This document shows, piece by piece, positions 19,120 through 62,644 of a stretch of 64,000 nucleotides of DNA. Location: IMG/VR virus record IMGVR_UViG_3300033067_000343, positions 17,247 through 81,246 of that record. One strand, 5' to 3'. The notes beneath the pieces were generated by a model that saw only the letters and a program-made list of their open reading frames with translations, was not told the DNA's origin and searched no databases. The stretch's first letter is position 1. The number at the start of each line of letters is the position of its first letter. The stretch is from a virus. Its lineage: Duplodnaviria; Caudoviricetes. A program made the position numbers and the translations under genes.

Positions 19120-19499
19120 CAACCAATTTTATAACACCACCGGACTTTGTAGAAGATCCGAACCATACTATTCTGCTAATTGATGCAGACCCTGTTGATG
19201 TAGAAACATTGGCTTACCTGTGTGCAGGACACGAAGAAGCATTTAACGTTTATTTGTATCGTGAAGATATGGATAACGATCTTTGGCTCAATCAAGTTGC
19301 TGACCGTGCTGATACAATTATCGTAAATACTATAGATAACAAACTAAGTATCATTAAAGATAATTTTATTGACTTTCAAAAAACTTATTACTATGGACCC
19401 AAGCATTTCTTGCATAACACAAGACGATGCGAAACTCTATTAGATTATTTTGTAATTCGAGCTAATGACAGAAAACATCAAACTCCAAGTCCATTGTAA
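19116..19499 (+). CDS. hypothetical protein
   Basis: 127-aa coupled ORF. Confidence 0.6.
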   Translation: MTTNFITPPDFVEDPNHTILLIDADPVDVETLAYLCAGHEEAFNVYLYREDMDNDLWLNQVADRADTIIVNTIDNKLSIIKDNFIDFQKTYYYGPKHFLHNTRRCETLLDYFVIRANDRKHQTPSPL

Positions 19500-20673
19500 C
19501 TTCTGCGGTAAGAACCGTAATGAAGTAGATAAACTAATTGTTGCAAACGATGCAGGTATCTGTAACGAGTGCATCAGCTTATGCAGTAACATCATTAACA
19601 AAGAGCGTAATGATGAGTTCCGCAAAGACAAAAAGGTCAGTAAAGCACTAGACCCTATTAAGATTAAGAACCACCTCGACGAGTATGTGATTGGGCAGGA
19701 TGCTGCTAAGATTGCCCTAAGCGTTGGCGTTGTTAATCACTACAAACGCATCTTCTTTGAAAGTGCAGTAGAGCTAGAGAAGTCAAACATTCTAGTATTT
19801 GGGCCAACAGGATCGGGTAAAACACTGTTAGCCAAAACAATTGCACGTTACCTAAACGTTCCATTTGTTGTAGCAGATGCAACTACCTTAACTGAAGCAG
19901 GATACGTAGGCGACGATGTGGAAAGCATTATTGGTGGACTGCTATCCGCAGCAGACAATGACGTTGCACGTTGTGAGCAGGGCATTATCTTCCTAGACGA
20001 AGTAGACAAGATTGCCCGAAAAAGCGAAGGCGCAAGTATTACCCGCGACGTAAGTGGCGAAGGTGTACAGCAAGCTCTACTAAAGCTAGTAGAAGGCACC
20101 AAGTGCAAGGTAAGTGTAAACGGTGGCAAGAAGCATCCTGCATTGGATCAAGTGGAAATTGATACAAGCAAGATTCTGTTTGTTGCAGGTGGTGCATTTC
20201 CGGGACTAGAGAAACTAGTGGAACGTAGACAGCGTGGATCTAACATTGGATTTAACGGCCCACTATCAACTGAGAATTTAGACAGCACACAAGTTACGCC
20301 CGAAGACTTTATCAAGTTTGGAATGATTCCCGAATTCTGCGGACGTTTTCCTATTACAGTTCAAATCGATGAGCTAACTGTAGACGACTTTATTCGGATT
20401 CTCAAAGAACCTAAAAACAACTTGCTGGCACAAATGAAGTTCTATTTTGAAAGCGACGAAATAGAATTAACGTTTACAGACGATGCAGTGTTAGCAGTAG
20501 CAGAATTGGCGCATGAGCAGCATGTAGGTGCTCGTGGACTAAAAACCATATTAGAGCGTACTCTAATGCCCTACATGTACACCCTAGCTGAAATTAAAAA
20601 GCAGGGGTTTAAAAAGATCGAAATAACTGACAAAGTTGTTAAATATAACGATCCACCCAATTTTATAGAATAA
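19465..20673 (+). CDS. clpX: ATP-dependent Clp protease ATPase subunit ClpX
   Basis: C4 zinc domain (CNFC..C..C), [12 protein letters not shown] pore loop, [13 protein letters not shown] loop, GARGL. Confidence 0.96.
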
Positions 20674-20681
20674 GGACACAG

Positions 20682-20915
20682 ATGAACGAACGAATCAAAT
20701 TACACGGCAGCAGCGTACTCGTACAAAACGATAACGTTGAAAAAGCACTTCGCAAATTTAAAAAGAAAATCATGGAAAGCGGTAAGCTACAAGAGCTACG
20801 TGAACGTGAGTTTTATGAGAAGCCAACTACTGCCCGTAAACGTGCAAAAAATCAAGCCCGCAGACGCTGGCAAAAGAAGCTTGAATCACAAGCTCTACCA
20901 AAAAAATTGTATTAA
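20682..20915 (+). CDS. rpsU: ribosomal protein bS21
   Basis: NVEKALRKFKKK..REREFYEKPTTARKRAK..ARRR. Confidence 0.93.
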   Translation: MNERIKLHGSSVLVQNDNVEKALRKFKKKIMESGKLQELREREFYEKPTTARKRAKNQARRRWQKKLESQALPKKLY

Positions 20916-21006
20916 TACTTTTTTGAAAGTATAATAAATACATGTGCAGTGCCAATAATGGGCTGCACACTAAACGTCATAAACTTGCTTATTAAAGGAG
21001 AAAAAC

Positions 21007-21453
21007 ATGACACAATTCAACATCCGTACTCTAGACCTACCTTCCCTACATCGTTCAGCCATTGGCTTTGACCGCATGTTTGAGGAATTGAATCGCACCT
21101 TTGCAAACAGCAAACAAGGTAACTATCCTCCACACAATATTGTCCAACAAGACGATACCCATTTTGTGGTTGAAGTTGCTGTAGCTGGCTTCGCAGAAAG
21201 CGAAATCAATGTAGAACTAGCAGACAATGTTCTTACCGTAACTGGTGAAAAAGTTCGCAGCGAAGATGAAGTAGCTCCGAATTACCTACACCAAGGCATC
21301 AGCAATCGCAATTTCGTTCGCAGCTTTACTCTAGCTGACAACGTTGAAGTTCGCGAAGCTGTTGTTGAAAACGGTATCCTTTCGGTTAACTTGGAACTGG
21401 TTATCCCAGAAGAAAAGAAGCCGAAAACTATTGCATTGACTTTTAAGAAGTAA
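21007..21453 (+). CDS. small heat shock protein (Hsp20/IbpA family)
   Basis: IGFDRMF, YPPHNI, VAVAGF, YLHQGIS.R.F.R.F.LAD, NGILSV..IPEEKKP. Confidence 0.93.
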   Translation: MTQFNIRTLDLPSLHRSAIGFDRMFEELNRTFANSKQGNYPPHNIVQQDDTHFVVEVAVAGFAESEINVELADNVLTVTGEKVRSEDEVAPNYLHQGISNRNFVRSFTLADNVEVREAVVENGILSVNLELVIPEEKKPKTIALTFKK

Positions 21454-21496
21454 TCAGCTATAATGCAATATACACAGAGCAATCACGCTCTGTGTA
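21436..21496 (+). promoter_or_regulatory. sigma70 promoter plus 10-bp hairpin upstream of clpS
   Basis: TTGACT-17-TATAAT; TACACAGAGC/GCTCTGTGTA inverted repeat 21471-21496. Confidence 0.6.
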
Positions 21497-21512
21497 CTTC
21501 AGTTTTAATTTT

Positions 21513-21833
21513 ATGCCAACATCTACATCAACTAAAACACGTCAACAAATTCGCATTCAACCTAAGCTAGACGTTCAGCCACCATCGCAGTTCAATGTTA
21601 TCTACGTTAACGATAACACCACTACTATGGAATTCGTTGTTGAAACTCTATGCACTATTTTCGATCACAGTGATGAAGCTGCGATGGCGTTGACTATGAA
21701 AATCCACGAAGATGGCTCTGCTGTTGTGGGCACATACCCATATGAAATTGCAGAACAAAAAGGCGTAGAAGTAACTTTGCTTGCACGTAACAACGGTTTC
21801 CCTCTAGCTGTTAAGCTAGAAGCAGATCAGTGA
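21513..21833 (+). CDS. clpS: ClpS N-degron adaptor
   Basis: VIYVNDNTTTMEFVV, M.IHEDG.AVVG.Y.YEIAEQK, FPL. Confidence 0.92.
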   Translation: MPTSTSTKTRQQIRIQPKLDVQPPSQFNVIYVNDNTTTMEFVVETLCTIFDHSDEAAMALTMKIHEDGSAVVGTYPYEIAEQKGVEVTLLARNNGFPLAVKLEADQ

Positions 21834-22090
21834 TTAAACCTAAAGAGTTTGCAACTAGAGAAGAAGCCCGTGCCTTCTTAAAAAGGTGCGGGTTACTTAA
21901 GACTACGCGAGTCTTAGAGGGCGAAGAACGTAAACAAGTTGAGACTATGCTGCGGTTACTTGGACCCGGTGAAGATTCTAACAGCCAAAGATTCTGGACC
22001 GAAGAGTGGGTAGTGGGAGACAAAACTTATCAGCACACTGTTGGTGAGGGTGTTGACGAGTTATCTGAGACTACAGAAGATGACGTCTGA
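21830..22090 (+). CDS. hypothetical protein
   Basis: GTGA overlap; 86 aa. Confidence 0.55.
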   Translation: MIKPKEFATREEARAFLKRCGLLKTTRVLEGEERKQVETMLRLLGPGEDSNSQRFWTEEWVVGDKTYQHTVGEGVDELSETTEDDV

Positions 22091-22286
22091 AGAAGAAAAC
22101 ACATTCCGAGTCTTAAAGGATGAAGACCCAATTGTAACTAGCAAATGGTGTTTCTGGGGTCTACACAAGTGGACCAAGTGGGATAATTCTCATCAAAGCA
22201 GGGATTATCGAGAGTCGTGGGTAATACAGAAAAAGACTTGTGTTCACTGCAACGACTTTAAAGAACGAAAAAAAATTTTAAAATGA
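22080..22286 (+). CDS. hypothetical protein with Cys/His motif
   Basis: CFWGLHKWTKW..CVHC; ATG 22080. Confidence 0.55.
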   Translation: MTSEEENTFRVLKDEDPIVTSKWCFWGLHKWTKWDNSHQSRDYRESWVIQKKTCVHCNDFKERKKILK

Positions 22287-22762
22287 TCTTCAATCACATT
22301 AAACAACTTAAAGCAGAAGGCAAAAGGATTGGCATTACCTTTTCAACATTCGATATGCTTCATGCAGGACATGTGGCTATGCTTAGTGAAGCCAAGAATC
22401 ACTGCGATTACCTTATATGCGGGCTCCAGACAGACCCGACTATCGACCGCCCAGACACGAAAAATAAGCCTGTCCAGAGTATTGTTGAACGTCAGATTCA
22501 ATTGGCTGCTTGTCGTTACGTGGACGAGGTGGTGGTTTATTCTACGGAGCAAGACCTTACTGACCTTTTGCTCATCTTACCAGTTGACGTTCGAATCCTT
22601 GGAGTAGAATACCAAGACAAAGACTTTACTGGACGCCACGAATGTGCAATGCGTAGAATTGAATTAGTGTTTAATGGACGCGATCACAGCTTTAGCAGCA
22701 GTGGATTAAGAAGCCGTGTTGTTATGGCAGAATCAATGAAGGCTTTATCCACAAAGGGATAA
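22283..22762 (+). CDS. cytidylyltransferase (TagD-like)
   Basis: FSTFDMLHAGH (HXGH), LICGLQTDP, RDHSFSSS. Confidence 0.88.
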   Translation: MIFNHIKQLKAEGKRIGITFSTFDMLHAGHVAMLSEAKNHCDYLICGLQTDPTIDRPDTKNKPVQSIVERQIQLAACRYVDEVVVYSTEQDLTDLLLILPVDVRILGVEYQDKDFTGRHECAMRRIELVFNGRDHSFSSSGLRSRVVMAESMKALSTKG

Positions 22763-22763
22763 T

Positions 22764-23294
22764 ATGGATGTAATGCTTGACCTCGAGACACTGGGCACTA
22801 GGCCCGAGTGTGTTATTTTAACTTTAGGTGCAGTAAAGTTTGACCCTTTTTCAATGAAGGAACCTGGCCCGGGATTGTATGTTCGTCCTAACGTAGACGA
22901 GCAAATTGCAAAAGGACGAGAAGTCCAAGAAGATACAATGCTGTGGTGGATGGATCAGTCAGAGGACGTTCGAGAAGAAGCACTCGGAGAAGAAGGTCGT
23001 ATTAGCGTTGAACAAATGTACAAGGAGCTTAACCGGTTCCTTGTTGGTGTGAATACTATTTGGTGTCAAGGACCAGTCTTTGACATTGCCATCTTGGAAA
23101 ATCTGTATAGACAATACGGTTGGCCAACTCCGTGGCAATTCTGGCAGATTAGCGATAGCCGAACAGTATTCAAAATGCACGGTGACCCACGTGTAAAAGG
23201 TAAAGTGGGCCTTCACAATGCATTAGAGGATTGTGTAAGCCAAGCAACTGCGGTTCAGCAAGTGTATAAAAAATTAGGACTAGAAAAACGATGA
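22764..23294 (+). CDS. DEDDh 3'-5' exo(ribo)nuclease
   Basis: MLDLETLG, QGPVFDI, HNALED. Confidence 0.85.
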   Translation: MDVMLDLETLGTRPECVILTLGAVKFDPFSMKEPGPGLYVRPNVDEQIAKGREVQEDTMLWWMDQSEDVREEALGEEGRISVEQMYKELNRFLVGVNTIWCQGPVFDIAILENLYRQYGWPTPWQFWQISDSRTVFKMHGDPRVKGKVGLHNALEDCVSQATAVQQVYKKLGLEKR

Positions 23295-23743
23295 CTACAA
23301 TTCTTAAAGAAACTCATGCTCGCACAGTGGCTAAGACCATTAGTTGGCGAGTTCTACTTACACTTAGCCATGTTATTAACGGGCTTATTGTATCTGGAAG
23401 CCTGTTAGTTGGGTTGCAAATTGCAGGCCTGTCGGCGATTATTAACAGCATTTTGTTCTGGGGCCACGAACGTGCCTGGAATATCTTTCTGTGGAACCGT
23501 AAACAAACAGACCAGGACTTTGTCGAAGGACATCCTCGCACATTGAGCAAGATTATCACCTGGCGCATTCTTATCACAGGCAGCAACTTCTTAATTCCTT
23601 TCATCATGACAGGTAGTTGGGGTGCCGCGGCAGCGTTCCTTGGTATTGCAACCTTTGTGAACATTGGGTTGTTCTGGGGACACGAACGTGTGTGGAACAA
23701 GATCCATTGGGGCAAAAAGGCGGATGTTGCTACAGCAGAATAA
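23291..23743 (+). CDS. DUF2061-like membrane protein, tandem duplicated domain
   Basis: two copies of RT..K.I.WR......FWGHER.WN. Confidence 0.7.
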   Translation: MTTILKETHARTVAKTISWRVLLTLSHVINGLIVSGSLLVGLQIAGLSAIINSILFWGHERAWNIFLWNRKQTDQDFVEGHPRTLSKIITWRILITGSNFLIPFIMTGSWGAAAAFLGIATFVNIGLFWGHERVWNKIHWGKKADVATAE

Positions 23744-24860
23744 GCTAGGTCACTATAAGGTCGGTGACCTTATAACCCATAGCAAGTTAGAAGCAATAGA
23801 TCTACATAGCAAGACAGGCATTCATCCTCATTGGGACTTTAATGAAGCTGCCTTTTCTTGCTATAACTGGACAGTAGAACCTGCCCAACACATCCTAGAG
23901 CTGTATCGTGCAAGGGCACAACAGCTTAGGGACAAATACGATTACATTGTGCTATTGTATAGTGGTGGCGCTGATAGCGAAACTGTTCTGCAAAGTTTTA
24001 TTGACAACGACATTAAGCTAGACGAGATTGCTTCCTACAGCAACTACGATGCTACCAGCGACAAGGACAATAACCTAAACTGCGAACTGTTTAAGGTTAG
24101 CGGACCACGAGCTGAACAGTTAAAACAAGACTACCCATGGATGCAGCACCGTGTCATTGACCTAAGTCAAATGACTGTAGACTACTTTAATAAAGTTGGG
24201 TTAGATTGGATTGAGGATCTCAACATGTTCTTTACTCCAAACAGTGCAGTACGTGAAAGCCTTGGATTAAAGATCAAAGAATGGGCAGACATTATTCACA
24301 GTGGCAAAAGCTTCTGCTTGCTATGGGGTCACGATAAGCCACGGCTATTGCACATCAATGGGCGATACACTATTAGGTTCATGGACTTATTAGACAACGG
24401 CCCAACAGTTAAAAGTTTTGCAGGACAATTGCCTTACGCAGACGAACTTTTTTACTGGACACCAGACATGCCTGAGATTGTGATCAAGCAAGGGCACATG
24501 CTTAAAAACTATCTAAACAGCAATCTAACAACCAGCCCATTTGTAAGCACACAAAAAAGTGATCTGGCATACAAAGAAGTTAACGGTGTTAAGTACTGGT
24601 TAAATAATCATGGAGTTCATAGTGTCATTTATCCTAGATGGAACATTGATACTTTTAGCCCCGGCAAACCTGCTAGTATTATCTTCAGTCCTAGAGACGA
24701 ATGGTTCTTTAACTTGAATCAAGAAGACTCAGCTAAACGTATATGGCGTGCAGGCATCGATAAAGTGTGGGATATGATTCCGGACTATTGGAAAAACGAT
24801 ACACACAATTTAGCAACAGGATTTAAAGCCTGTTGGAGCAAAGATTACTATTTGGAATAA
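23724..24860 (+). CDS. PP-loop (adenine nucleotide alpha hydrolase)-like protein
   Basis: LLYSGGADS motif; probable start ATG 23724. Confidence 0.6.
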   Translation: MLLQQNKLGHYKVGDLITHSKLEAIDLHSKTGIHPHWDFNEAAFSCYNWTVEPAQHILELYRARAQQLRDKYDYIVLLYSGGADSETVLQSFIDNDIKLDEIASYSNYDATSDKDNNLNCELFKVSGPRAEQLKQDYPWMQHRVIDLSQMTVDYFNKVGLDWIEDLNMFFTPNSAVRESLGLKIKEWADIIHSGKSFCLLWGHDKPRLLHINGRYTIRFMDLLDNGPTVKSFAGQLPYADELFYWTPDMPEIVIKQGHMLKNYLNSNLTTSPFVSTQKSDLAYKEVNGVKYWLNNHGVHSVIYPRWNIDTFSPGKPASIIFSPRDEWFFNLNQEDSAKRIWRAGIDKVWDMIPDYWKNDTHNLATGFKACWSKDYYLE

Positions 24861-24861
24861 C

Positions 24862-25176
24862 ATGCAATTAATTTTTAATCGAGAAGCCGCAGATCAATTG
24901 CGGGAAAGATATACAGTATTAGAGCTTGAAACATTCGACGTTGACGGCAAAGAACTTGAGGTATTCTGCGTTGTTCCTGCAGAGAAGATTGCCTTAACAG
25001 AAATCACAACAGTAGATCATTCTACTAAGATGCACAATGAATTTGTGGCTGCATTAAAGAGCAAAGACTACAAACTTTGCCGAGATTTGTATGTGCATGT
25101 TATGGGTCGCTTTGGCGGGGAACTAGACAGTTTCTACGAAGAAATCCTTAAGCGTATTGATTCTAGCGATACATAA
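24862..25176 (+). CDS. hypothetical protein
   Basis: 104-aa ORF. Confidence 0.6.
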   Translation: MQLIFNREAADQLRERYTVLELETFDVDGKELEVFCVVPAEKIALTEITTVDHSTKMHNEFVAALKSKDYKLCRDLYVHVMGRFGGELDSFYEEILKRIDSSDT

Positions 25177-25217
25177 TACCCAACTCCTTACTTGTAAATA
25201 GAGTAAGGAGATCACAT

Positions 25218-25355
25218 ATGAGCTGGTTTAAACGCAGACCTAGGACTCGAGACCCTATCAAAACGCCACCACGTGACGTTAGTCCATTAACAGAAAAGCT
25301 CTTAGAGGAATCTAAGCAAGCAATTCGAACCACAAAACCCAAGAAATATAAGTAG
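25218..25355 (+). CDS. small basic protein (45 aa, not in ORF track)
   Basis: SD TAAGGAG; MSWFKRRPRTRDPIKTPPRDVSPLTEKLLEESKQAIRTTKPKKYK. Confidence 0.6.
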   Translation: MSWFKRRPRTRDPIKTPPRDVSPLTEKLLEESKQAIRTTKPKKYK

Positions 25356-25438
25356 CATTTAATCTAGAACAAACTCTCTGTAAATAATAATAAGCATTTT
25401 TCAACAACAACAAGAAAAATTATTACAGGAGCTAGAAA

Positions 25439-42270: not shown

Positions 42271-42306
42271 CACTGTTTCGAAATTCGAGATAGTGTATAA
42301 TACGGT

Positions 42307-42465
42307 ATGAAAAAGCAGAATCCGATTAGAATTGAAGCACCCAAACGCCGTTCGCATCGGGCACTGTTTGATCCGACACTACCGTTCCGCCCCAAGGTGG
42401 AGAAAAGTGTCAAAGCCTATGTTCGTAAACCCAAGCATCCTAAAGGAGATCCTGATGCAACTTAA
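42307..42465 (+). CDS. ArfA-like alternative ribosome rescue factor (52 aa, not in track)
   Basis: MKKQNPIRIEAPKRRSHRALFDPTLPFRPKVEKSVKAYVRKPKHPKGDPDAT resembles ArfA core AL..DPLFR.RVE..K...Y.RK.KH; TATAAT 5 nt upstream. Confidence 0.7.
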   Translation: MKKQNPIRIEAPKRRSHRALFDPTLPFRPKVEKSVKAYVRKPKHPKGDPDAT

Positions 42466-42637
42466 CCAAGCTGAACGCTTCGCAAATGAAGCAGTGTTTG
42501 TTCTTCAATTTAACAGCCGCGATGCTGTACGCTATATTCAGCGTAACGCAGGCGTGGAGAAGAAGGATGCAGAAGCAGCCTTCAAGCGTGTGGTAACGTT
42601 CCACAAGCCAGCAAAATGTCAGCCCGTTGCTGCCTAA
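42455..42637 (+). CDS. hypothetical protein
   Basis: SD AAGGAG before ATG 42455 (true start of track ORF 42332). Confidence 0.6.
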   Translation: MQLNQAERFANEAVFVLQFNSRDAVRYIQRNAGVEKKDAEAAFKRVVTFHKPAKCQPVAA

Positions 42638-44096: not shown

Positions 44097-44594
44097 ATGG
44101 CTAGACCGAATCCTATACGCAGTATAATGGCGCAAGCGTTACCCAGCATAACGTACCAACGCCGCAAGAGTTTCCGACCCACAAACGCAGATGTAACGTA
44201 TGCTTACAACATCATTAACAGATATGTTTTTGATGGCGTTTTAACCAAGCCCACAATACAGCAAGGACGCATTCCTAAGTGTTGGGGAACATGCTATTGG
44301 CTAGAACAAGAACAAAACACTGGATCCTGGTGCCGCATTAAGCTAGTGGATAAATGGTTCTGCGAGCAGTGGTTCATGAACACACTTGCACACGAAATGG
44401 TACATCAATACCAATGGGACATAGACCGTTGGGAACACATTGATTACTATGGCAGGGACATACACCAAAACAGTGGCGGGCATGGGCCTAGCTTCTATGA
44501 ATGGCGTGAACGTTTTACCCACTATGGACTTAACCTAAAGATATCGTTTGGACAAAAACGCTGGTTCAAACACCAAGATTTCACTAAGTGCTAA
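44097..44594 (+). CDS. SprT-like zinc metalloprotease domain protein
   Basis: LAHEMVH, GHGPSF motifs. Confidence 0.8.
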   Translation: MARPNPIRSIMAQALPSITYQRRKSFRPTNADVTYAYNIINRYVFDGVLTKPTIQQGRIPKCWGTCYWLEQEQNTGSWCRIKLVDKWFCEQWFMNTLAHEMVHQYQWDIDRWEHIDYYGRDIHQNSGGHGPSFYEWRERFTHYGLNLKISFGQKRWFKHQDFTKC

Positions 44595-48095: not shown

Positions 48096-48716
48096 ATGCT
48101 GTCACATCTTCGCGCCCCAAACTTCTCTAATCACTTTCTACGCTTCGTAGATCAAGATCCAGTACACAGTTTAACAGAGCAACGAAACCTTGAACGAAGA
48201 TGTCGTTACGATCGCAACATATTTTTCTTAATTGAAAACGAGGTGCCAGTTGCTGTGCTATGCGTTGCATTTACAAATGGCCTGCCAGATGATATTGCAG
48301 ACATATTGGACGTAGACAGCCAAATAAGTTTGCTTGCAAATCATGCAATCTTCTACAGTGTATTCCGCACAGACAAACCTTGCACTATTCAAAACGCAGG
48401 AGCAAAGTTAATCCGTGAAGCAGCACAATGGATTAAAGGAAACATGCCACAGATCACAAACTTTGTGACAATGAGTCCTATTCCAAACCTTAGTGCCCAC
48501 TTTCCGGAGCCACCTAGCATGGAAGCTATCATGGAATTCTTGCAAGCACAACGTGATCCAGTTGCCAAGTTCCATATTCGCAACGGTGCTAGAGTATTGC
48601 GTACCATCCCTAACGCAGACACAAGCGAAAAGCGTAAAGCACAGAGCTTTGGACATATGGTTAACTACGACTACACCCCAAACATCATAGGCACACAAGA
48701 TTCAATAAATAACTAA
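48096..48716 (+). CDS. malonyl-CoA decarboxylase catalytic-domain-like protein
   Basis: AIFYSV, FVTMSPIP, DPVAKFH.RNGA, AD.S....QSFG.MVNY.Y. Confidence 0.75.
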   Translation: MLSHLRAPNFSNHFLRFVDQDPVHSLTEQRNLERRCRYDRNIFFLIENEVPVAVLCVAFTNGLPDDIADILDVDSQISLLANHAIFYSVFRTDKPCTIQNAGAKLIREAAQWIKGNMPQITNFVTMSPIPNLSAHFPEPPSMEAIMEFLQAQRDPVAKFHIRNGARVLRTIPNADTSEKRKAQSFGHMVNYDYTPNIIGTQDSINN

Positions 48717-53686: not shown

Positions 53687-53687
53687 T

Positions 53688-54462: not shown

Positions 54463-54870
54463 ATGACTATCAAAGTTACCCGTGTAGATACTTGGCCAGT
54501 TCAATCCGACGAATTGCACCCTTATCTCAAAGAAAAAAACAAAGAAATTTACGACACTCAGGAACAACTATTCCACAAATATCGTGATCAAGCAAGAGAT
54601 GTTGAAAAAAGCAAAATTATAAAGGATGGCATGGTTGTCCTAACAATTACAAGCTATTTCGAAACCGACGACAAACTTCAGCAATATCTCAGCGAACGTG
54701 CTGCGGTAATGCCTGCATTGTTTGGGCAGCTTGATGACACTGAAAAACCACACCATTTGAATATTTCCAGAGTTATCACAGTTACTGATCTTACAGCCAA
54801 CAAAGTCCTGCGAGTGCTAACGTATTCGTATGATAACTGGAACAATCCTGTACTAACAGTTCCAGAATAA
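54463..54870 (+). CDS. hypothetical protein
   Basis: TAAATA and SD AGGA upstream. Confidence 0.6.
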   Translation: MTIKVTRVDTWPVQSDELHPYLKEKNKEIYDTQEQLFHKYRDQARDVEKSKIIKDGMVVLTITSYFETDDKLQQYLSERAAVMPALFGQLDDTEKPHHLNISRVITVTDLTANKVLRVLTYSYDNWNNPVLTVPE

Positions 54871-55389: not shown

Positions 55390-55431
55390 AAATTATATAT
55401 CCCTGCACAAATAAGGTAACTAAATATTGTC

Positions 55432-56037
55432 ATGAATACCGCTCGACTAATTACATCGTCAGAACTTGACTACGTTCGCGATTTATTTTCCATAGACAAC
55501 ACACTCATTGGCGAGGCCATTGACCCTGCATTTTTTGAAACAATGATGGTTAACTGGAAAAATCTATTAGACAAAGATCTAATGATGATAACCGTGTTGT
55601 TTAACGAACAAAACGAAGCCATTGCTATGTACACCGCAACCCTTTATCCAAACATGCGAGGGTGGTGGGTTGGTGCAACTAAAATCAAAGAATCAAACAA
55701 CCACTTTAATACTAGTGCAAAAATTATGTTGCCTGCCCTTGATTTGCTTCTAACAGAATTAGAATCAAGAGGGTACTATAAGTTTTGGATGGGTGCTCCT
55801 GAAAAACACCACAACATCAGAAACTCTGTAATGACAAAGTACAGCGAGAAGCTGAGTCGTTACGACTGGTACGACGAATATATTATTCCCCAAGGTCAGC
55901 GATGCGACATTGCGATATGGGAACAAAACCGAAGAACTTGCAATTGGTCAGACATTCTTGTTAGAATGTTTGTATTAAGACAAGAGTTTAGAAAACCACT
56001 AATTGCACAAGAAAGACTAACTAAATCCAATGTTTAA
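55432..56037 (+). CDS. hypothetical protein, possible acyltransferase (GNAT-like) fold
   Basis: weak fold pattern only; precedes desaturase. Confidence 0.4.
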   Translation: MNTARLITSSELDYVRDLFSIDNTLIGEAIDPAFFETMMVNWKNLLDKDLMMITVLFNEQNEAIAMYTATLYPNMRGWWVGATKIKESNNHFNTSAKIMLPALDLLLTELESRGYYKFWMGAPEKHHNIRNSVMTKYSEKLSRYDWYDEYIIPQGQRCDIAIWEQNRRTCNWSDILVRMFVLRQEFRKPLIAQERLTKSNV

Positions 56038-56818
56038 ATTTTATAAAAACTTAGGAGAAAATTTCAGGAAGGTATATATACCTCAACATATACTGGCAGC
56101 AGTGGGTATAGCAACACTGTTCACTGGTCACACTTCTTTATGGTGGCTAGCGTTAGTTTATCCTGCATGGTTTCTATTTGGTCATATTGGTTTTGCAATC
56201 TTTATTCACAAATACTACTGCCATAAAATGTTTGTCACTTATCCGTGGATCGCACGTCTAGGTGGATACCTGGGCATGTTAGCAGGTACTGGCAGTCCAG
56301 TAATGTTAAAAGTATTACACATAGGGTACCATCACCCAAATAGTGATACAGAATTAGATCCGCACACTCCAAGAAAAGGATTTTGGTGGAGCTACTTCTT
56401 GTGGCTCAATCATAAATGGGACTTTAAGAAACTTTGGCTAGCCAAGGACATTCTCAAAGATCCGTGGATGAAATTTTATCATCGCAATTACTACAAACTC
56501 TATTGGGGCACCTTTTTGCTGCTTTGTATCGTTGACTGGAGACTGGCCGTTTTTAGTATCAGCACTGCAACTGTTATTGAGTTTCATTTAAGTGGTATTG
56601 TTAATACCTTTGGACATACTCCACATAAATGGAGCTATCAAAATTACCCTGATGTCGACGACAGTCAAAATATTCCATGGCTAAACTGGCTTACACTAGG
56701 GCTCGGTTTACATAATAATCACCACGGACGTCCGTCCGATTACAACTATGCACACAAACCCGGCGAAATAGACTTTGCCAAATGGTTCGTGCCTTTAATT
56801 ACTAAAAAACATGAATGA
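56030..56818 (+). CDS. membrane fatty-acid desaturase (delta-9-like)
   Basis: His boxes HKYYCH, HIGYHH..D..DPHTP, LHNNHH; TM segments. Confidence 0.9.
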   Translation: MFKFYKNLGENFRKVYIPQHILAAVGIATLFTGHTSLWWLALVYPAWFLFGHIGFAIFIHKYYCHKMFVTYPWIARLGGYLGMLAGTGSPVMLKVLHIGYHHPNSDTELDPHTPRKGFWWSYFLWLNHKWDFKKLWLAKDILKDPWMKFYHRNYYKLYWGTFLLLCIVDWRLAVFSISTATVIEFHLSGIVNTFGHTPHKWSYQNYPDVDDSQNIPWLNWLTLGLGLHNNHHGRPSDYNYAHKPGEIDFAKWFVPLITKKHE

Positions 56819-57059
56819 TATCGAATTAAGAATTAAAAACATTGTTAGCCGCCAACTAGATGTGCCAGTCGCATCTATACAGAATCACCATTCATTTATT
56901 AAAGACTTAGGCGGCGATAGCCTAGACACTGTAGAGATGGTGCTTTGGCTAGAAGATGAATTTAAGATTTTAGTTGACGAAGAAGCAGCCGAAGAAATGA
57001 ATACTGTTCAAAAAGCAATCGACTACGTTACTAACTTGAAATCAGCTGAACAGTTATAA
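56811..57059 (+). CDS. acpP: acyl carrier protein
   Basis: DLGGDSLDTVEMV..LEDEF phosphopantetheine motif. Confidence 0.92.
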   Translation: MNDIELRIKNIVSRQLDVPVASIQNHHSFIKDLGGDSLDTVEMVLWLEDEFKILVDEEAAEEMNTVQKAIDYVTNLKSAEQL

Positions 57060-57791
57060 CAATAGCTGTTCCGCAAGCACTTTTGGATCACCGAGTACCG
57101 TTGATAAATTTACATTTATTGTAAGTCTATCTTCTGGTCCTTGGTTCCACACTGCGTGATACTTGCCAGTGTCTATAAAATACCAACTACCATCTGCGGG
57201 TATTTGGAATCTTTCTCCCCCAACTTCGTACCACGAATTTTCGCCGCCCTTGATTGTGGCATGCAAACGTATTCCTTTATAGTAAGGAAAGTCAACATGG
57301 CTTCCTAAGTAGCCCTTAGATCTTAAATCAAGCAAACTTGCTTTGCTGATATTGTGCTTGAATTTGCTAAAGACTTGCTTAAAGTATTCATTGTAAATGA
57401 CTGTGGGATTTACAAAATCATTTTCAATCAAGCACGGCAACGTTTCGTTTAGATGCAAGTCATCTGGGTACACTTCTCCGAATCGCTCATCCCGGCGAGT
57501 AAAATGATCCAGCAATGGGTTACTGGCTTCGGTACGTGCAAAGAATCCTAATCCTTTGTAACGTGTGTATTTTTTCTCTTCTTTATTTCTATTGATAGAT
57601 TGCAGATCGTGCTCTGCCAAGATTGCATCAATTTGTGCAGTCATTTCTTTTAAATCAAATGAATAATGCTCCGGCAACTTAAACACATTGTACGAGAGTG
57701 CAGGCTGTTCTGTGTACCACTCGTCTAGTGGTTTAGAGTGCTTTACTGTATCAATGGTGTCGCCCCACGGGGCATTAATAGATATTTTCAT
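57054..57791 (-). CDS. Asp/Asn beta-hydroxylase-like oxygenase
   Basis: GSHVD, RLHATI, F.IPADG.WYFIDTGKYHAVWN.G..DR. Confidence 0.75.
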   Translation of the reverse strand: MKISINAPWGDTIDTVKHSKPLDEWYTEQPALSYNVFKLPEHYSFDLKEMTAQIDAILAEHDLQSINRNKEEKKYTRYKGLGFFARTEASNPLLDHFTRRDERFGEVYPDDLHLNETLPCLIENDFVNPTVIYNEYFKQVFSKFKHNISKASLLDLRSKGYLGSHVDFPYYKGIRLHATIKGGENSWYEVGGERFQIPADGSWYFIDTGKYHAVWNQGPEDRLTINVNLSTVLGDPKVLAEQLLL

Positions 57792-58662
57792 TTAATTTAA
57801 CGTGCTCGAAGAACGGAGCAAGTTTAAAGTCTGGCGTTAAGCGACCGCGACGGTTGCTACCAGGGTCTGGAAAGTTTGAATTCACTGGGCTCCAATCGGT
57901 AATCTTAACCCAAGTCGATCTCATCTTTTTAGTCTCATCCATTGGGAAGAATATAACGTTCTTTTCTTTGAAACCGTTAATTGAATTGTGTGCTCTTGCC
58001 CACTCATTGTCAATACCGTACTGGCCGCAAACTAAATCAACCATTTGATCCCATGTCCAGTTCTTGTGTTTGTCTAATGCAAACCTTCCAACTTGACCCA
58101 CATTTCTAAAACGTAGAATATGACCACCACCGATTTGATTCGACAGTTCTAACAAACGCTGCGGAACCATGTCGTTAGTTCCTTTTTGTAGAATTGCACC
58201 GATGTTCACATTCATCCTAACATCGTGGCATTCCTGCCATCCACGCATCTTTCTATCAGCACAGCGAGCACCATCCATAACTTCGTAGATGTCGTCGTTG
58301 TTGGCACCGTTCATGCTAATATAGATGCTTCGCATACCAGCATCAGCAAGTTCTCTAGCATACCCAGGACGTGCAAGCATTAGACCATTGGTCATCATTG
58401 TGGGACGATGCCCTAGTTGTTTAACTTTTGCCACAATGTCAACAAGGTCTGTTCTAACAGTTGGTTCACCGCCAATTAAACGAATCTCTGCTTTACCCGG
58501 CAACTGTTCAAGTACTTCGTAAAATTTGTTTATGTCTAGATCAGGGACAGTTCTAATAGGCACATAGCAGTTAGCACATTCCATGTTACATCTATGTGTT
58601 ATATCCACAAATATACTGTAAAAGTGGTTGTCTTTTGGTTCCAATTCGTAATAGGTATTCAT
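57775..58662 (-). CDS. radical SAM enzyme (MoaA-like)
   Basis: CNMECANC, LIGGEPT, MTNG, ISMNG. Confidence 0.88.
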   Translation of the reverse strand: MNTYYELEPKDNHFYSIFVDITHRCNMECANCYVPIRTVPDLDINKFYEVLEQLPGKAEIRLIGGEPTVRTDLVDIVAKVKQLGHRPTMMTNGLMLARPGYARELADAGMRSIYISMNGANNDDIYEVMDGARCADRKMRGWQECHDVRMNVNIGAILQKGTNDMVPQRLLELSNQIGGGHILRFRNVGQVGRFALDKHKNWTWDQMVDLVCGQYGIDNEWARAHNSINGFKEKNVIFFPMDETKKMRSTWVKITDWSPVNSNFPDPGSNRRGRLTPDFKLAPFFEHVKLNENIY

Positions 58663-58718
58663 GCGAGTATTTATTGTGCATATGTTAACAAACTTATATT
58701 TCGCTACTTAATAAATAC

Positions 58719-58746
58719 TTGACATATTATAGCCTTGTGCTATAAT
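58719..58746 (+). promoter_or_regulatory. strong sigma70 promoter of tmRNA locus
   Basis: TTGACA-16-TATAAT with extended TG. Confidence 0.8.
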
Positions 58747-58756
58747 GTGAGTTATT

Positions 58757-58789
58757 GCTGTATGAAGCAAAGAGAAAAGTGTTCTGGAC
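58757..58789 (+). pseudogene. first, incomplete copy of tmRNA acceptor-piece start
   Basis: ends GTGTTCTGGAC; TGTTCTG can pair with CAGGGCA of coding piece; no T-arm or CCA follows. Confidence 0.5.
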
Positions 58790-58852
58790 GCAAGGGTGCT
58801 TAACCGTTCGCTAAAATAAGCAATCGAACTCGCGTGTGGCATAAATACATTT

Positions 58853-59611
58853 ATGTATTACTATGTCTACCAGATCACTAACCTACTAAACAATAAGATT
58901 TATGTAGGTAAACACAAATCAAAAAAACATCCGTCTGGGAACGGCTACTACGGTTCCGGGAAACAAATCAAAGCCGCCATAGAAAAGTATGGTATAGAAA
59001 ACTTCAAGAAAGAAGTTCTACACTACTGCAACTCTATGGAAGAAATGGCCAACAAAGAGTTGAGCATAGTAACAGAAGATTTTGTAAAGCGTAAAGATAC
59101 CTACAATATGCACAAGGGTGGTCCTGGAGGTTGGGATCACTATAACGGCAGCAAACAGCATAGTGCAAACTCAAGCAAAGGCGGTAAAAAGCGAGCTCGT
59201 GATCCTGCTAATCCTTTTTACAATGCAGAGTTTCAGGAAAAGTATAGCTGGACTCGTTCGCCCGAGCATATGAAACTAATGAATGAACGAGCCAAGGACC
59301 CAGAAGCTATTGCAAAAAGGCAAGCAACATTTAAGAAGCGTGGACACAGCCAAGGCGAAAAAAATTCTCAATTTGGAAGATTCTGGATTTCTAATGTGTT
59401 GACTAAAGAAGTCAAACGCATTACAATAAATGACACTATACCAGAAGGATGGGTCCGAGGTAAGAAAGGACATACAATTACCAAATGTTGGGTAAATAAT
59501 GGTATAAAAGAACATTACATCTTGTTAGAAAAAGAACAAGACTATAAACTTAAAGGGTTTAGTAGTGGCAGACTTAAACAAAGTATGCCACAAAACAGAA
59601 TAGTAGTTTAA
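58853..59611 (+). mobile_element. free-standing GIY-YIG (Seg-like) homing endonuclease gene
   Basis: YVYQITN..NNKIYVGKH, YYGSG, AIEKYG.ENFKKEVL, YNM..GG; flanked by direct repeat GTTCTGGAC. Confidence 0.85.
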
Positions 59612-59614
59612 GGC

Positions 59615-59930
59615 TTGAATAGAAAGAAGTTCTGGACCCGGCTATCGTAGGCCGGCAGGTCCACCATAAAACACATTTAAGGTTGTCCTAAGACTGTCGG
59701 GGGCTAAGGTAACAGGGGACAACTGTAATTCCCTCGTAGTGTGTTTTATAATGGGCCTGAAAGGTATCGACAGGGCAACAAGTATTGACAGGATCTACTC
59801 GGCAAGGTAGAAGCCGTTAGGGTTGGGGATTCCTGGCCGAAGACAACAAAAAGTTAGACGCAAACGACAACGTTTTCGCATTGGCAGCGTAAGCTGACTT
59901 GGGTAGTTATACCTCGAAACAGAAAATAAC
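59615..59930 (+). ncRNA. ssrA: circularly permuted two-piece tmRNA, tag ANDNVFALAA
   Basis: 3' acceptor CAGGTCC-A-CCA (59656-59666) precedes 5' GGGCCTG (59753-59759) with G3.U70; paired intervening segment; ATCGAC after D-loop; tag 59860-59892. Confidence 0.88.
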
Positions 59931-59956
59931 AAATAGGCTCTTCGGAGCCTATTTTT
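59931..59956 (+). terminator. intrinsic terminator after tmRNA
   Basis: AAATAGGCTC-TTCG-GAGCCTATTT plus T run. Confidence 0.9.
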
Positions 59957-59988
59957 CTATCTGCGTAATATACCCTATAAATATTTCT

Positions 59989-60966
59989 ATGAAAAAATTC
60001 TTTTGCCCAGCACCATGGCGGTCCTTGTACTACCATGTGGACAAATCTGCTGTTTGCTGTATTAGTGCAAAGAAGTTTGATATGAGTCCTGTTGAGTTTA
60101 TGAACAGCGACTATCTTAAGAATCTCAAGACCAAGTTCTTAAATGATGAATTTGATGAAACTTGCCAAGGCTGCAAGTCACTAGAGGATGCAGGACTACA
60201 GAGCATACGTCAACACCTGCTGAGATTGTACGGTGAGTCCACAGTAGAGAATCTCGACTATATGGAGTTACGGGCCAGCAATCTTTGCAACTTTCAATGC
60301 AAGATGTGTGACGGTGATAGCAGTTCATTGATCAGTGGGATTGTTAACACTGTATCAGAATCTGATTGGCTTGAGATACTAACGCTTGCAGAGAATCTCA
60401 AGTACCTTACCTTAACTGGCGGCGAGCCAATGTTAATTAAACACTACTATCAACTGCTGGATCATTTGATAGCAAAAGGCAAGGTAGATATTGACTTGCG
60501 TGTGTACACAAACGGAAGTGTTTACAATCCTATCTTTGTGAGCAAACTGCTACAGTTTAAATCTACATTGAATCTAAGCATAGACGGAGTAGGCAGAACC
60601 GCAGAGCTACAACGCACAGGAACAGAATGGCCCACTGTTAAAGGCAATGTGGATAAGTTTTTAGAGTTACCAGTTAACATCAAATTCCATACCACACTCA
60701 CAAATATTTCTATCATTGATGTGCATTCGTTGGCACAATACTTTATGGATATGGTTGCCCGTAAACCAGATTGTAGATTTGTTGCACACACTGCAAACTC
60801 TCCGGGACACCTAGCAATCTATAACCTAGCTGCACCCTTGTGTAAGACTGCATTACGCAGTATTGATCAAGCGTTAGAGATACTTGTTGGGCCGCAATTT
60901 GATCAATTAGTAGAACAATTAACAGCACATCGCTCTTTATTGGACAAACGTGTCAACGCAATCTAG
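59989..60966 (+). CDS. radical SAM enzyme with N-terminal Cys (SPASM/twitch-like) region
   Basis: CPAPW..CC..C..C; CNFQCKMC; TGGEPM; YTNG; start ATG 59989. Confidence 0.88.
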   Translation: MKKFFCPAPWRSLYYHVDKSAVCCISAKKFDMSPVEFMNSDYLKNLKTKFLNDEFDETCQGCKSLEDAGLQSIRQHLLRLYGESTVENLDYMELRASNLCNFQCKMCDGDSSSLISGIVNTVSESDWLEILTLAENLKYLTLTGGEPMLIKHYYQLLDHLIAKGKVDIDLRVYTNGSVYNPIFVSKLLQFKSTLNLSIDGVGRTAELQRTGTEWPTVKGNVDKFLELPVNIKFHTTLTNISIIDVHSLAQYFMDMVARKPDCRFVAHTANSPGHLAIYNLAAPLCKTALRSIDQALEILVGPQFDQLVEQLTAHRSLLDKRVNAI

Positions 60967-61001
60967 CTTTAAAACGTTGTATGTGTGTTAAGGAGTTCTG
61001 T

Positions 61002-61145
61002 ATGCAATGCTCAGATTCGAAACCATCAAAGAATGAACCAGTTACGTTTAGTAGAACATGGATGTTTGGCTGCGGTAGCTGCGACACCAAACGTTCCGTA
61101 CCTTGCAAAAACTGCAAACATTTTGTTCAAACTGTTGCAAAATAA
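61002..61145 (+). CDS. small zinc-finger protein (47 aa, not in track)
   Basis: SD AAGGAG; CGSC-x7-CKNC. Confidence 0.6.
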   Translation: MQCSDSKPSKNEPVTFSRTWMFGCGSCDTKRSVPCKNCKHFVQTVAK

Positions 61146-61163
61146 ATCTAGTTGTTATATAAT
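61135..61163 (+). promoter_or_regulatory. sigma70 promoter for tRNA operon
   Basis: TTGCAA-17-TATAAT, 8 nt before tRNA. Confidence 0.7.
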
Positions 61164-61171
61164 ACACACAT

Positions 61172-61246
61172 GCGTTAGTAGCTAAGTGGCATAGCAGGCG
61201 ATTCTAAACCGCTGAATCACGGGTTCGATTCCCGTCTAACGCACCA
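61172..61246 (+). tRNA. amber suppressor tRNA, anticodon CUA
   Basis: 7-bp acceptor GCGTTAG/CTAACGC, D-arm GCTA/TAGC, loop TT-CTA-AA, T-arm ACGGG-TTCGATT-CCCGT, A73, encoded CCA. Confidence 0.9.
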
Positions 61247-61456
61247 TAGTAGAGTGCATCGTAAGCCGTTAGTGGTTGAGCCTGAACGAGCACACAGTAT
61301 TCCTAGGATAGCTGGTCGCAGCCGAGGTAACGCTCATCGCCACATCCAATGTATTCTACTATGGTTCATATTGAAGTGCTTTGAAGGAGCAGACCGGCGC
61401 ACAACTCCGCGGTAAGTGATAGTGGCCTTAGCATGCAGCAGAACACTTCAATATGG
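61243..61456 (+). ncRNA. two tandem long-stem RNA modules trailing the tRNA
   Basis: 17-bp stem 61243-61259/61349-61365; 13+4-bp stem 61366-61383/61439-61456. Confidence 0.55.
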
Positions 61457-61472
61457 TTAATAAGGAAAATAC

Positions 61473-61754
61473 ATGCAAGTAATGCACGACAGAGTTTTAA
61501 TTAGAAAGCTCGAACCCGAAACAAAATCCGCAGGCGGCATTATGCTAACCTCTTCTGTTACTCCAGTTTACGAAGCTGAAGTGGTTGCAGTTGGCACAGG
61601 CAAACCAGTTAAAGACAGTGCTCCGATTCCGCTTACAGTAAAAGTAGGCGACCAAGTAATTTACAACCCTGCTGCGACTATCACAGTTTCAGTTAAAGGT
61701 GAAACTTTACTGGTCATCAAAGAAGAAGAAATCTTTGCAATTTTAGACAAGTGA
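61473..61754 (+). CDS. groES: co-chaperonin GroES
   Basis: HDRVLI, SAGGIML mobile loop, VVAVGTG, VKVGD.V, KEEEIFAI. Confidence 0.92.
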   Translation: MQVMHDRVLIRKLEPETKSAGGIMLTSSVTPVYEAEVVAVGTGKPVKDSAPIPLTVKVGDQVIYNPAATITVSVKGETLLVIKEEEIFAILDK

Positions 61755-62038
61755 CAGATTACCTGCTTCGTCATGCATTGAGCGATTCTGACATTGAGTT
61801 TCTAAATGAAACCACAGTGGATTTTGAGATTGTCGGCCCAGATGAGCCAGTATCAGACACAAACTCATTTGATAGTGGGTGGTGTGATATGGCAACTAAT
61901 GCACGTATCATTGCCCATACCAATAGAGCAGTGTTTAGAAATGTTGGCGATCAAGAGTACACGTACTTGAAACTTCGCTATCAAGATCGCCTAATTGAAA
62001 TGCATGACGGCATCAGAAAGATATATAATATAGCATAG
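61751..62038 (+). CDS. hypothetical protein (TAG stop, in frame with next gene)
   Basis: GTGA overlap with groES. Confidence 0.6.
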   Translation: MTDYLLRHALSDSDIEFLNETTVDFEIVGPDEPVSDTNSFDSGWCDMATNARIIAHTNRAVFRNVGDQEYTYLKLRYQDRLIEMHDGIRKIYNIA

Positions 62039-62059
62039 ACATTAACAAAGGAGAACCAA

Positions 62060-62644
62060 ATGTCAAAAACTCAATCGTAGATCAATTACCAATGTAAGGA
62101 ATTAGTGTTCCACTTCAATAAGGGACATCTTACAGATCCGACCATTCCTATGTGGGTCGTTAAAGCACATGGTGTAACATTCTACGTGAATCACGTTACA
62201 GCAGAAATACCTTGGAGCACCAAGGAAACTCCCGATAACCCCAGTACCAAAGGCAGCATCAAATTTAAACGATGTAAGCTAACCATTGACTCCGATAACT
62301 GTGCAACGTTATCTAAGTTAGGCATGCTTGATCGTAATTTGCCAACGCCACACTTGCCGTTTGACCGCATTATTGCACCTGCATATAATGACTTGGCAAC
62401 AGCATTGGAAAACAACGAGTTTAAGCACAGCAAGATCAAATACGTCGAAGGTGCGTGTAGCAGTGAGTTTATCATTTGCGACATTACTGACCGAGATGAT
62501 ATGTTGATGATGGGGCTCAAGTATCCAAATCAATTCCGAGTGCTAAATGCTAACGAAGCCTATTACAAGGACTACGATGGCAAACACAACTCACTTAACA
62601 TGCGTGGCGGTGAAGGGTTTGATGATGACGACTTTGAGGATTAA
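62060..62644 (+). CDS. hypothetical protein with in-frame TAG at codon 7 (candidate amber read-through)
   Basis: AAGGAG-6 nt-ATG TCA AAA ACT CAA TCG TAG ATC AAT ... continuous with track ORF 62105-62644. Confidence 0.6.

Follow-up and report, generated by a model that had tools for sequence, protein, structure and literature searches.

Gene content of the window and of its relatives

We analysed a 64,000-nt stretch of phage DNA (hereafter the window; bases 17247 to 81246 of the single 81,246-bp IMG/VR contig IMGVR_UViG_3300033067_000343) for a set of genes concerned with the rescue of stalled ribosomes and with the degradation and refolding of proteins. All nine items named in a preliminary description of this DNA were recovered: a permuted (two-piece) transfer-messenger RNA (tmRNA) gene, clpX, rpsU (encoding the ribosomal protein bS21), hsp20, clpS, clpP, groES, a tRNA gene with the anticodon CUA and an open reading frame (ORF) of 52 residues resembling the rescue factor ArfA (Table 1). 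The same description had reported a tmRNA tag ending in LAA, intact GYVG and IGF loops in ClpX, the Ser, His and Asp motifs of ClpP and the lack of smpB in the window, and each of these points was borne out. On balance, we favour the view that the phage lineage inherited bacterial-type genes of translation and proteostasis, whose role would be to increase the rescue of stalled ribosomes and the clearing or refolding of their products.

The contig was estimated by CheckV to be 23% complete, which for a length of 81,246 bp implies a genome of roughly 350 kb and hence a jumbo phage. Using megablast, no match to cultured phages was obtained for 11 kb of the window. A search based on ClpX retrieved uncultured relatives, the closest of which (three genomes of 240-354 kb, G001 to G003) share 83% identity in ClpX with the window, the more distant ones having sizes of 316-407 kb. 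The near-complete relatives of 320-354 kb exhibit the same gene set and the same gene order as the window. Two samples were compared throughout: 18 related records selected by ClpX, five of them at least 90% complete, and 11 large contigs picked by an exact 36-nt sequence of the tmRNA T-arm. The identity of the genes, their conservation, their synteny and the absence of SmpB were read directly from these records and from the contig.

Pseudomonas phage vB_PaeM_PA5oct (MK797984; Arenbergviridae), a 287-kb jumbo phage, has a gene order like that of the window (genes EST35_0255-0260 and EST35_0272): nrdA and nrdB are followed by clpX, rpsU, two small ORFs, hsp20 and clpS, and clpP lies about 9 kb downstream. 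In the window, nrdA and nrdB are located at 5478-8921; the 767-residue ORF at 5478-7781 was considered as a candidate ClpA and rejected, being NrdA. From the local gene order common to both, the window belongs to a distant PA5oct-like jumbo phage. The two differ in that the identity between their ClpX proteins is below 60% and in that PA5oct carries an FtsH, not seen in the window.

Table 1. Location of the features described in the text (window coordinates, unless a related genome is named)
Feature	Position	Strand	Evidence or remark
clpX, 402 aa	19465-20673	+	Pfam AAA_2, zf-C4_ClpX; NCBIfam ClpX
rpsU, bS21, 77 aa	20682-20915	+	Pfam Ribosomal_S21 62 bits; TIGR00030 63 bits vs cut-off 29
IbpA-like Hsp20, 148 aa	21007-21453	+	Pfam HSP20 68.5 bits
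clpS adaptor, 113 aa as listed	21492-21833	+	Pfam ClpS 91 bits; under NCBIfam equivalog cut-offs
ArfA-like basic ORF, 52 aa (DUF7230-like family)	42307-42465	+	ends TAA
60-aa ORF	42455-42637	+	no Pfam family; overlaps 3' end of the ArfA-like ORF
SprT-like metallopeptidase	44097-44594	+	Pfam SprT-like; directly 5' of clpP
clpP, 207 aa	44642-45265	+	Pfam CLP_protease 205.5 bits
Genes flanking the tmRNA	56030-57059; 57054-58662 (-); 59899-60966
Promoter and acceptor-piece remnant	58719-58791	+	12/12 sigma-70; first ~45 nt of acceptor piece
GIY-YIG (SegE-like) endonuclease ORF	58853-59611	+	Pfam SegE_GIY-YIG, GIY-YIG
Permuted (two-piece) tmRNA	59602-59892	+	RF04321 and RF01850
Intrinsic terminator hairpin after tmRNA	59931-59954	+	10-bp stem, then T run
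tRNA, anticodon CUA, encoded CCA	61172-61246	+	ARAGORN; Rfam tRNA 62.7 bits
groES co-chaperonin, 93 aa	61473-61754	+	Pfam Cpn10 80.8 bits
Candidate suppression-target gene, in-frame TAG at 62078-62080	62060-62644	+	Shine-Dalgarno and ATG, short codon run, TAG, continuation
GGQ release-factor fragment, 129 aa (relatives)	G003:C1:293707-294096; also G002:C1:63369-63683	- (G003)

The two-piece tmRNA gene

The tmRNA gene was detected with two Rfam models, tmRNA_permuted (RF04321; 92.5 bits for a cut-off of 47, at 59602-59892) and beta_tmRNA (RF01850; 94.1 bits for a cut-off of 84, at 59546-59955). As expected of a permuted gene, the acceptor piece lies 5' of the coding piece: the former ends with CCA at 59664-59666, the latter starts with GGGCCUG at 59753-59759. 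This heptamer pairs with CAGGUCC, followed by ACCA (59657-59666), to form an acceptor stem that carries the G3:U70 pair, the CCA being encoded. The tag ORF at 59860-59892 reads GCA AAC GAC AAC GTT TTC GCA TTG GCA GCG TAA and is translated as ANDNVFALAA*, so that the GCA resume codon, the stop codon and the hydrophobic Ala-Ala end are all present. The start of the acceptor piece forms a long pairing with the coding piece, in which compensatory changes were observed relative to the three closest relatives. A promoter-like site matching 10 of 12 positions is located about 120 nt 5' of the intact gene.

No SmpB was found in the contig or in any of the 18 related records, the search of the latter having detected its positive controls. 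In the absence of a phage SmpB, the host protein would be required, and this throughout the lineage.

A survey found tmRNA genes in 2.3% of the phage genomes examined (402 genomes); among 133 unique tmRNA structures, 53 were two-piece, mostly from aquatic phages (PMC9004378). The OM43 phage Melnitz is, in this respect, similar to the phage of the window, being a lytic myophage with a permuted ssrA and a bS21 gene; it differs by its genome size of 141 kb, by a glutamine riboswitch associated with its tmRNA and by the fact that neither ClpXP nor an ArfA-like gene is reported for it (PMC9004378). A further difference is that the gene of the window is interrupted upstream by a GIY-YIG element.

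The latter element consists of a SegE-like endonuclease ORF within an insertion of about 810 nt. Alignment with the relatives showed that this ORF is absent from the corresponding place in their genomes. Upstream of it lies a remnant comprising a 12/12 sigma-70 promoter and the beginning of an acceptor piece; its sequence is almost that of the 5' end of the tmRNA gene in the three closest relatives and is broken inside the T-stem. The order across 58719-59668 is thus: ancestral promoter and remnant, GIY-YIG insertion, complete divergent tmRNA. Exact copies of the canonical 36-nt sequence of the T-arm occur in more than 120 IMG/VR contigs, and this conservation makes it a plausible target for homing. 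The simplest reading of this arrangement would be that a homing endonuclease invaded a highly conserved target and brought with it a cleavage-resistant allele; as judged from the sequence, the insertion of the endonuclease has reshaped the tmRNA gene of the window. A group I intron was also considered as the cause of the interruption and rejected, no intron family scoring above its Rfam gathering score in the window.

Several features of this divergent tmRNA speak against a contribution to ribosome rescue. The 8 nt of its T-loop, UAUCGUAG, are atypical, comprising an extra base and a U in place of A58; the canonical 7-nt loop (UUCGAnY), which takes the form UUCGACU in the relatives and in the more than 120 contigs mentioned above, is not found in it. 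The whole T-arm reads CCGGC-UAUCGUAG-GCCGG, versus GCGGG-UUCGACU-CCCGC in the three closest relatives. Sequence searches retrieved this variant T-arm nowhere else in IMG/VR, and ARAGORN gave no call for the tmRNA of the window, though it called those of the relatives. In view of this aberrant, unique T-loop and of the ARAGORN miss, the window tmRNA may work poorly. It could be impaired, with weak or absent tagging, or serve chiefly as a decoy, sequestering host SmpB and competing with the host tmRNA, a role with which the lack of a phage SmpB is consistent. A precedent exists in phage DS6A: its tmRNA is reduced to the tRNA-like domain and, according to one proposal, inhibits trans-translation through the titration of SmpB (PMC4131195). 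We consider impairment or a decoy role quite unlikely, however, since the RF04321 score is twice the gathering score, nearly all pairs are canonical, the acceptor stem with G3:U70, the CCA end, the tag ORF, the promoter and the terminator are intact, and compensatory changes have maintained the extended helix that joins the acceptor piece to the coding piece.

In one relative (G014, locus G014:C1:64868-65337), the segment joining the acceptor piece to the coding piece of the permuted tmRNA is about 200 nt longer and begins with AAGGAG-N7-ATG. From this sequence, the tmRNA precursor may hold a small ORF.

The Clp proteins, the chaperones and bS21

ClpX scored 524 bits against the NCBIfam equivalog NF003745, for a cut-off of 359. 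Besides the GYVG pore loop and the IGF loop involved in docking to ClpP, it contains the CxxC...CxxC zinc finger, the Walker A and B motifs and the pore-2 loop. The RKH loop is more variable: the window and G001 to G004 have KKH at this position, G008 and G014 have RKV or RKN, and G016 and G017 have lost the loop.

ClpP scored 236.9 bits against the NCBIfam ClpP subfamily, just under the cut-off of 249, and its catalytic triad was located in the motifs GQACSMG (Ser), MIHR (His) and KFDTF (Asp). An assignment as a prohead protease was examined and rejected, the head-maturation protease model giving 72 bits. By its profile scores and motifs, this ClpP is of the cellular type. The SprT-like metallopeptidase gene that directly precedes clpP is kept at this place, as an SprT-like and CLP_protease pair, in the distant relative L075. 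Five relatives (G008, G010, G011, G020 and G023) encode two ClpP paralogues each, with scores of about 215-263 bits for one and about 94-116 bits for the other, a situation reminiscent of ClpP1/ClpP2 pairs.

The start of clpS may in fact be an internal ATG. The residues of the pocket of ClpS that binds N-degrons are NDN in the window, versus NDD in Escherichia coli ClpS. The best NCBIfam match of Hsp20 was IbpA (138.6 bits, under its cut-off). Similarly, GroES scored 84.8 bits against the NCBIfam GroES model, under the cut-off; no GroEL was found in G001 to G003, G008 or G014.

A 52-residue ORF probably related to ArfA

The 52-residue ORF has no NCBIfam hit of its own and no match in cultured phages by tblastn. 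It belongs to a family for which 23 representative clusters were retrieved from a library of 1.8 billion proteins and 443 clusters by a word-indexed search. The members are all 38-73 residues long and almost all metagenomic, many of them being encoded on contigs of 100-360 kb. Many are named ArfA by the JGI pipeline, on the basis of KO assignments.

Profile comparisons connect this family with ArfA. With a profile of 24 sequences, ArfA chains were the only matches in the whole PDB (E 0.026), and hhalign aligned the profile to enterobacterial ArfA with a probability of 81.6%. Deepening the profile to 131 sequences strengthened the match: hhalign reached 93.7% (E 1.9e-7) over 38 columns corresponding to ArfA residues 15-55, and six ArfA sequences were the only PDB matches, with a best E-value of 0.008. 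In the reverse search, the ArfA hidden Markov model ranked the 52-residue ORF at the top of the 1311 open frames of the contig, with an E-value of 0.032.

The aligned region includes the positions that contact RF2 in ArfA. In E. coli ArfA (YhdL; structures 5MDV, 5U4I and 5H5U), a patch formed by Leu19, Leu24 and Phe25 together with Ala18 contacts the switch loop of RF2, and the basic tail fills the mRNA channel (PMC5378476). A19, L20, L25 and F27 of the 52-residue ORF align with this patch; over the 131 sequences of the family, L20 is invariant and F27 is conserved in at least 90%. The family and E. coli ArfA share the A-L...L-F patch, an F-R/K-x-K/R-V-E-K segment and a Y-x-R-K-x-K-H basic tail, and the length of the ORF is near that of the active truncated form of ArfA. 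The ORF differs from ArfA by a basic N-terminal extension, by the loss of the GKG of KGKGS and by the lack of a hydrophobic tail; it terminates after 52 codons with a normal TAA, overlapping the start of the next gene. ArfA is regulated through non-stop mRNA (PMC10107115), and with a normal stop codon and no hydrophobic tail this regulation would not apply to the phage ORF.

The Pfam ArfA family gave no support to this assignment: no six-frame candidate for PF03889 was found in the contig, and the ORF had no hmmscan hit to it at E<=10. Only 3 of 24 family members match PF03889, weakly, with a best E-value of 0.015. The GKG is lost throughout the family through a 3-residue deletion in KGKGS (K---A/x-Y), a further departure from the rescue factor. 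The nearest Pfam family is instead DUF7230 (PF23876), for which the ORF scores 16.3 bits, below the cut-off of 27, and which is matched by 10 of the 24 relatives (best E 1.3e-5); likewise, the nearest Atlas cluster is annotated as 'DUF7230 domain-containing protein' (score 0.91). The ORF could encode a small basic protein of DUF7230 type that merely looks like the Lys/Arg-rich core of ArfA, for example one binding nucleic acids or the ribosome, with no part in rescue. Matches of short basic peptides can easily reflect composition, the single-profile E-values (0.008-0.03) are weak, and the gene is absent from several phages with tmRNA and ClpP. We nevertheless hold this alternative to be unlikely. 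A deeper profile strengthens the match, the match spans both the hydrophobic region contacting RF2 and the basic tail, and the naming by JGI is independent of our profiles. Taken together, these comparisons make it probable that the 52-residue ORF is a true homologue of ArfA, an ArfA-like function being rated somewhat lower.

In PA5oct, EST35_0191 (MK797984 115798-115950) encodes a protein of 50 residues that has the ArfA-like basic core, KPKVEKDKTKYSRKQKH, but another N-terminal part, and whose match to the family profile is weak (22 bits). Besides PA5oct, gene g10 of the Citromicrobium phage RXM is annotated as ArfA (PMC8953757).

The Shine-Dalgarno sequence of the 60-residue ORF that follows the ArfA-like ORF sits inside the 3' end of the latter, and a small ORF is also found downstream of the ArfA-like gene in G001 to G003, in G005 and in contigs L075 and L076. 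No Shine-Dalgarno sequence was found before the ArfA-like ORF itself in the window and in the distant relative L075, the other relatives being different. In the same two sequences, a -10-like box, TGTATAAT, ends 5-7 nt before the ATG (42288-42309 in the window, about 9965-10003 in L075). The position of this box and the missing Shine-Dalgarno sequence suggest a leaderless or near-leaderless mRNA.

The CUA tRNA and the reading of TAG

The tRNA with anticodon CUA has a promoter-like site of its own at 61135-61163. In the three closest relatives, the tRNA is 88% identical, its CUA anticodon is kept and three compensatory changes are observed in its stems; similarity to the tRNAs of these relatives pointed to no particular amino acid. 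A gene with an in-frame TAG follows, about 0.8 kb downstream in the window and about 1.7 kb downstream in G001 and G002. Its layout (Shine-Dalgarno sequence and ATG, 3-6 codons, TAG, in-frame continuation) is kept in the window and in G001 to G003, and a 6-nt indel ahead of the TAG preserves the frame across the four genomes. The suppressor tRNA may have its target here; another possibility is a leader peptide ahead of a gene that starts with the GTG at 62105. Elsewhere, TAG terminates 11 of 99 plus-strand ORFs (defined by a simple longest-ORF rule), often with a second stop codon behind it. TAG being otherwise an ordinary rare stop codon, the genome is not recoded, and of the recoding function proposed initially there remains this one conserved candidate.

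Occurrence of the genes in related phages

All five ClpX-selected records with a completeness of 90% or more contain a tmRNA: G002, G003, G008 and G014 have the permuted form, and G017, like G016 (79% complete), has a one-piece gene. Among the same five records, ClpP, ClpS and a ClpA of about 765 residues are each present in four, ClpP being missing from G017; G016 and G017 both possess ClpX and tmRNA without ClpP. The ArfA-like gene was detected in 9 of the 18 related records. In the window and in G001 to G004, clpP follows it at a distance of about 2.2 kb; in G008, G010 and G011, the two genes are 2.5-9 kb apart. In contig L075, whose ArfA-like protein is about 40% identical, the order clpX-bS21-hsp20-clpS-Rv2179c, then ArfA-like, then SprT-ClpP-GNAT is contained within 14 kb, mirroring the order found over 27 kb in the window.

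In the second sample, ClpP was detected in 8 of the 11 contigs and in all three complete ones, and most contigs encode an AAA+ protein of the size of ClpA instead of ClpX. The pairing of tmRNA with ClpP is the most robust one within a sample made of phages bearing tmRNA or selected by ClpX.

A search of the relatives for release factors revealed in G002 and G003 a protein of 129 residues with a GGQ motif. It matches positions ~210-334 of the RF1 model and has no N-terminal release-factor part, in which the codon-reading domain of full release factors is located. Its gene lies about 2 kb from an array of at least nine tRNA genes and was found only in these closest complete relatives. No RF-1 domain, whether of ArfB or of a release factor, was found in the window contig; by synteny, ClpA and the mini release factor would lie outside of it.

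Proposed role and alternative readings

In the reading that we favour, the phage tmRNA would be charged by the host alanyl-tRNA synthetase, delivered by host SmpB and EF-Tu, and would add ANDNVFALAA; the tagged chains would then be degraded by phage or host ClpXP (or ClpAP). The ArfA-like peptide, made constitutively from its stop-terminated ORF, would recognise ribosomes whose mRNA channel is empty and bring in a release factor. The activity of these products, its timing and the coupling of the tag with phage ClpXP are what we infer. The initial proposal that both rescue routes are carried by the phage is plausible: the tmRNA gene is complete, and the second route comes down to a profile-level relative of ArfA that misses the Pfam model. 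Were the parts active, the contribution of large phages to the infected cell would extend beyond tRNAs and initiation factors to the capacity for ribosome rescue and protein clearance, which would point to stalled ribosomes as a bottleneck of infection.

Each kind of gene described here has precedents in large phages, and a joint function as one system is conjectural. Huge phages above 200 kb were found to encode tmRNA, bS21, release factors and many tRNAs, which were read as redirecting host translation (Al-Shayeb et al. 2020, PMC7162821); SmpB is present in some of these phages, unlike in the window lineage, and Clp proteins and ArfA are not discussed in that study. The Sinorhizobium jumbo phage AP-J-162 has one tmRNA, six ORFs of the Clp family including clpX, and Hsp20 (PMC11242549). 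AP-J-162 and RXM belong to other phage groups, in which the genes are listed and not analysed as a set, and they are likened to the window by annotation only. What is new is, first, the profile-level evidence that appears to link a widespread family of ~50-residue DUF7230-like proteins to ArfA, these relatives lying mostly on large phage-like contigs and having no ArfA regulatory tail. Second, the lineage combines an ArfA-like peptide with tmRNA, ClpXP and ClpA/ClpS, to which the closest relatives add a mini release factor, without SmpB. The rest of the set repeats annotations of PA5oct-like and other huge phages.

Several observations weigh against a common role in rescue and clearance. The items are spread over 43 kb (19465-62644) and interspersed with unrelated genes, among which a Peptidase_S11 (D-Ala-D-Ala carboxypeptidase family), UvdE, sugar-modification genes and nucleases, as well as a desaturase, an acyl carrier protein (ACP) and radical SAM enzymes. 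PA5oct, which keeps clpX-rpsU-hsp20-clpS and clpP, has no tmRNA by either Rfam model, and phage Atu_ph07, in which ClpX is present, is tabulated with 0 tmRNA. Among the 11 contigs selected by the tmRNA T-arm, only 2 encode a true ClpX and 2 an ArfA-like gene. The tag ends vary in the relatives (...LMVA, ...SLAV, ...ALAAA, ...AKAA), the long tag of G008 ending in LAV, so that the match between LAA and ClpX is not conserved in the lineage. The tags of the closest relatives end in MVA and not in LAA. Regarding co-occurrence, the set does recur in the relatives with a conserved order; this mostly reflects shared descent.

The same observations fit a different account, in which the parts are unrelated auxiliary genes travelling together in a large syntenic genome, with no coupling between tagging and degradation. 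The Clp unfoldases and ClpP would then act on particular host or phage proteins, whether in regulatory proteolysis, in removing defence proteins or in virion assembly; bS21 would bias initiation and the tmRNA would serve another purpose. The dispersal of the parts, their separate promoter-like sites, the PA5oct gene content, the two relatives with ClpX and tmRNA without ClpP and the diversity of tag ends (MVA, LAV, LAA, KAA) all agree with it. In addition, ClpP, ClpS, ClpA and ClpX of jumbo phages have been read as anti-host or assembly factors (Iyer et al. 2021, PMC7824862). We find this account possible, though somewhat unlikely, for three reasons: tmRNA and ClpP occur together in 4 of the 5 ClpX-selected records at least 90% complete and in all 3 complete tmRNA-selected ones; the tag of the window keeps the canonical ALAA end, and its ClpX the GYVG loop, the pore-2 loop and the basic KKH loop; the ArfA-like gene is near clpP in several divergent relatives. 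The favoured reading, that of added rescue and clearance capacity, has in any case to be stated for separate parts. The proposal of an integrated kit is supported in part: conserved rescue genes and a cellular-type ClpXP do exist; dispersed over the window and preceded by separate promoter-like sites, they are probably separately transcribed auxiliary genes dependent on host partners, and constitute neither an operon nor a self-sufficient machine.

A more specific purpose was suggested initially, namely counter-defence, in which the set would free ribosomes that host abortive-infection RNases or anticodon nucleases have stalled. The rescue genes adjoin RNA-related genes such as that of an Rv2179c-like exoribonuclease encoded in the window, an argument by inference, and the relatives carry tRNA arrays and the GGQ mini release factor. 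No linked defence or anti-defence marker was found, none having been tested for. The degradation of host mRNA by the phage itself would create the same need, though, and the window encodes nucleases; as nothing separates these two sources of stalled ribosomes, we regard a dedicated counter-defence role as highly improbable.

Finally, the DUF7230-type peptides could represent a constitutive phage branch of ArfA that escapes the control by tmRNA and is paired, in G002 and G003, with the codon-blind 129-residue GGQ protein. This proposal is speculative and we think it very unlikely to be correct. If true, phage ArfA and the mini release factor would provide a release route independent of host RF2, which together with tmRNA and the Clp proteins would keep ribosomes cycling during the destruction of host mRNA or the action of defence RNases.

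Neighbouring genes

The tmRNA gene is flanked by genes of another kind: a fatty-acid desaturase, an ACP-like ORF with a DSLD motif, an Asp/Asn hydroxylase-like ORF and two radical SAM ORFs. They may form a small-molecule or lipid-modification cluster unrelated to the rescue and Clp genes. Elsewhere in the window, an ORF of 206 residues (48096-48716) matches the C-terminal domain of malonyl-CoA decarboxylase with 107 bits, an unusual finding in a phage.

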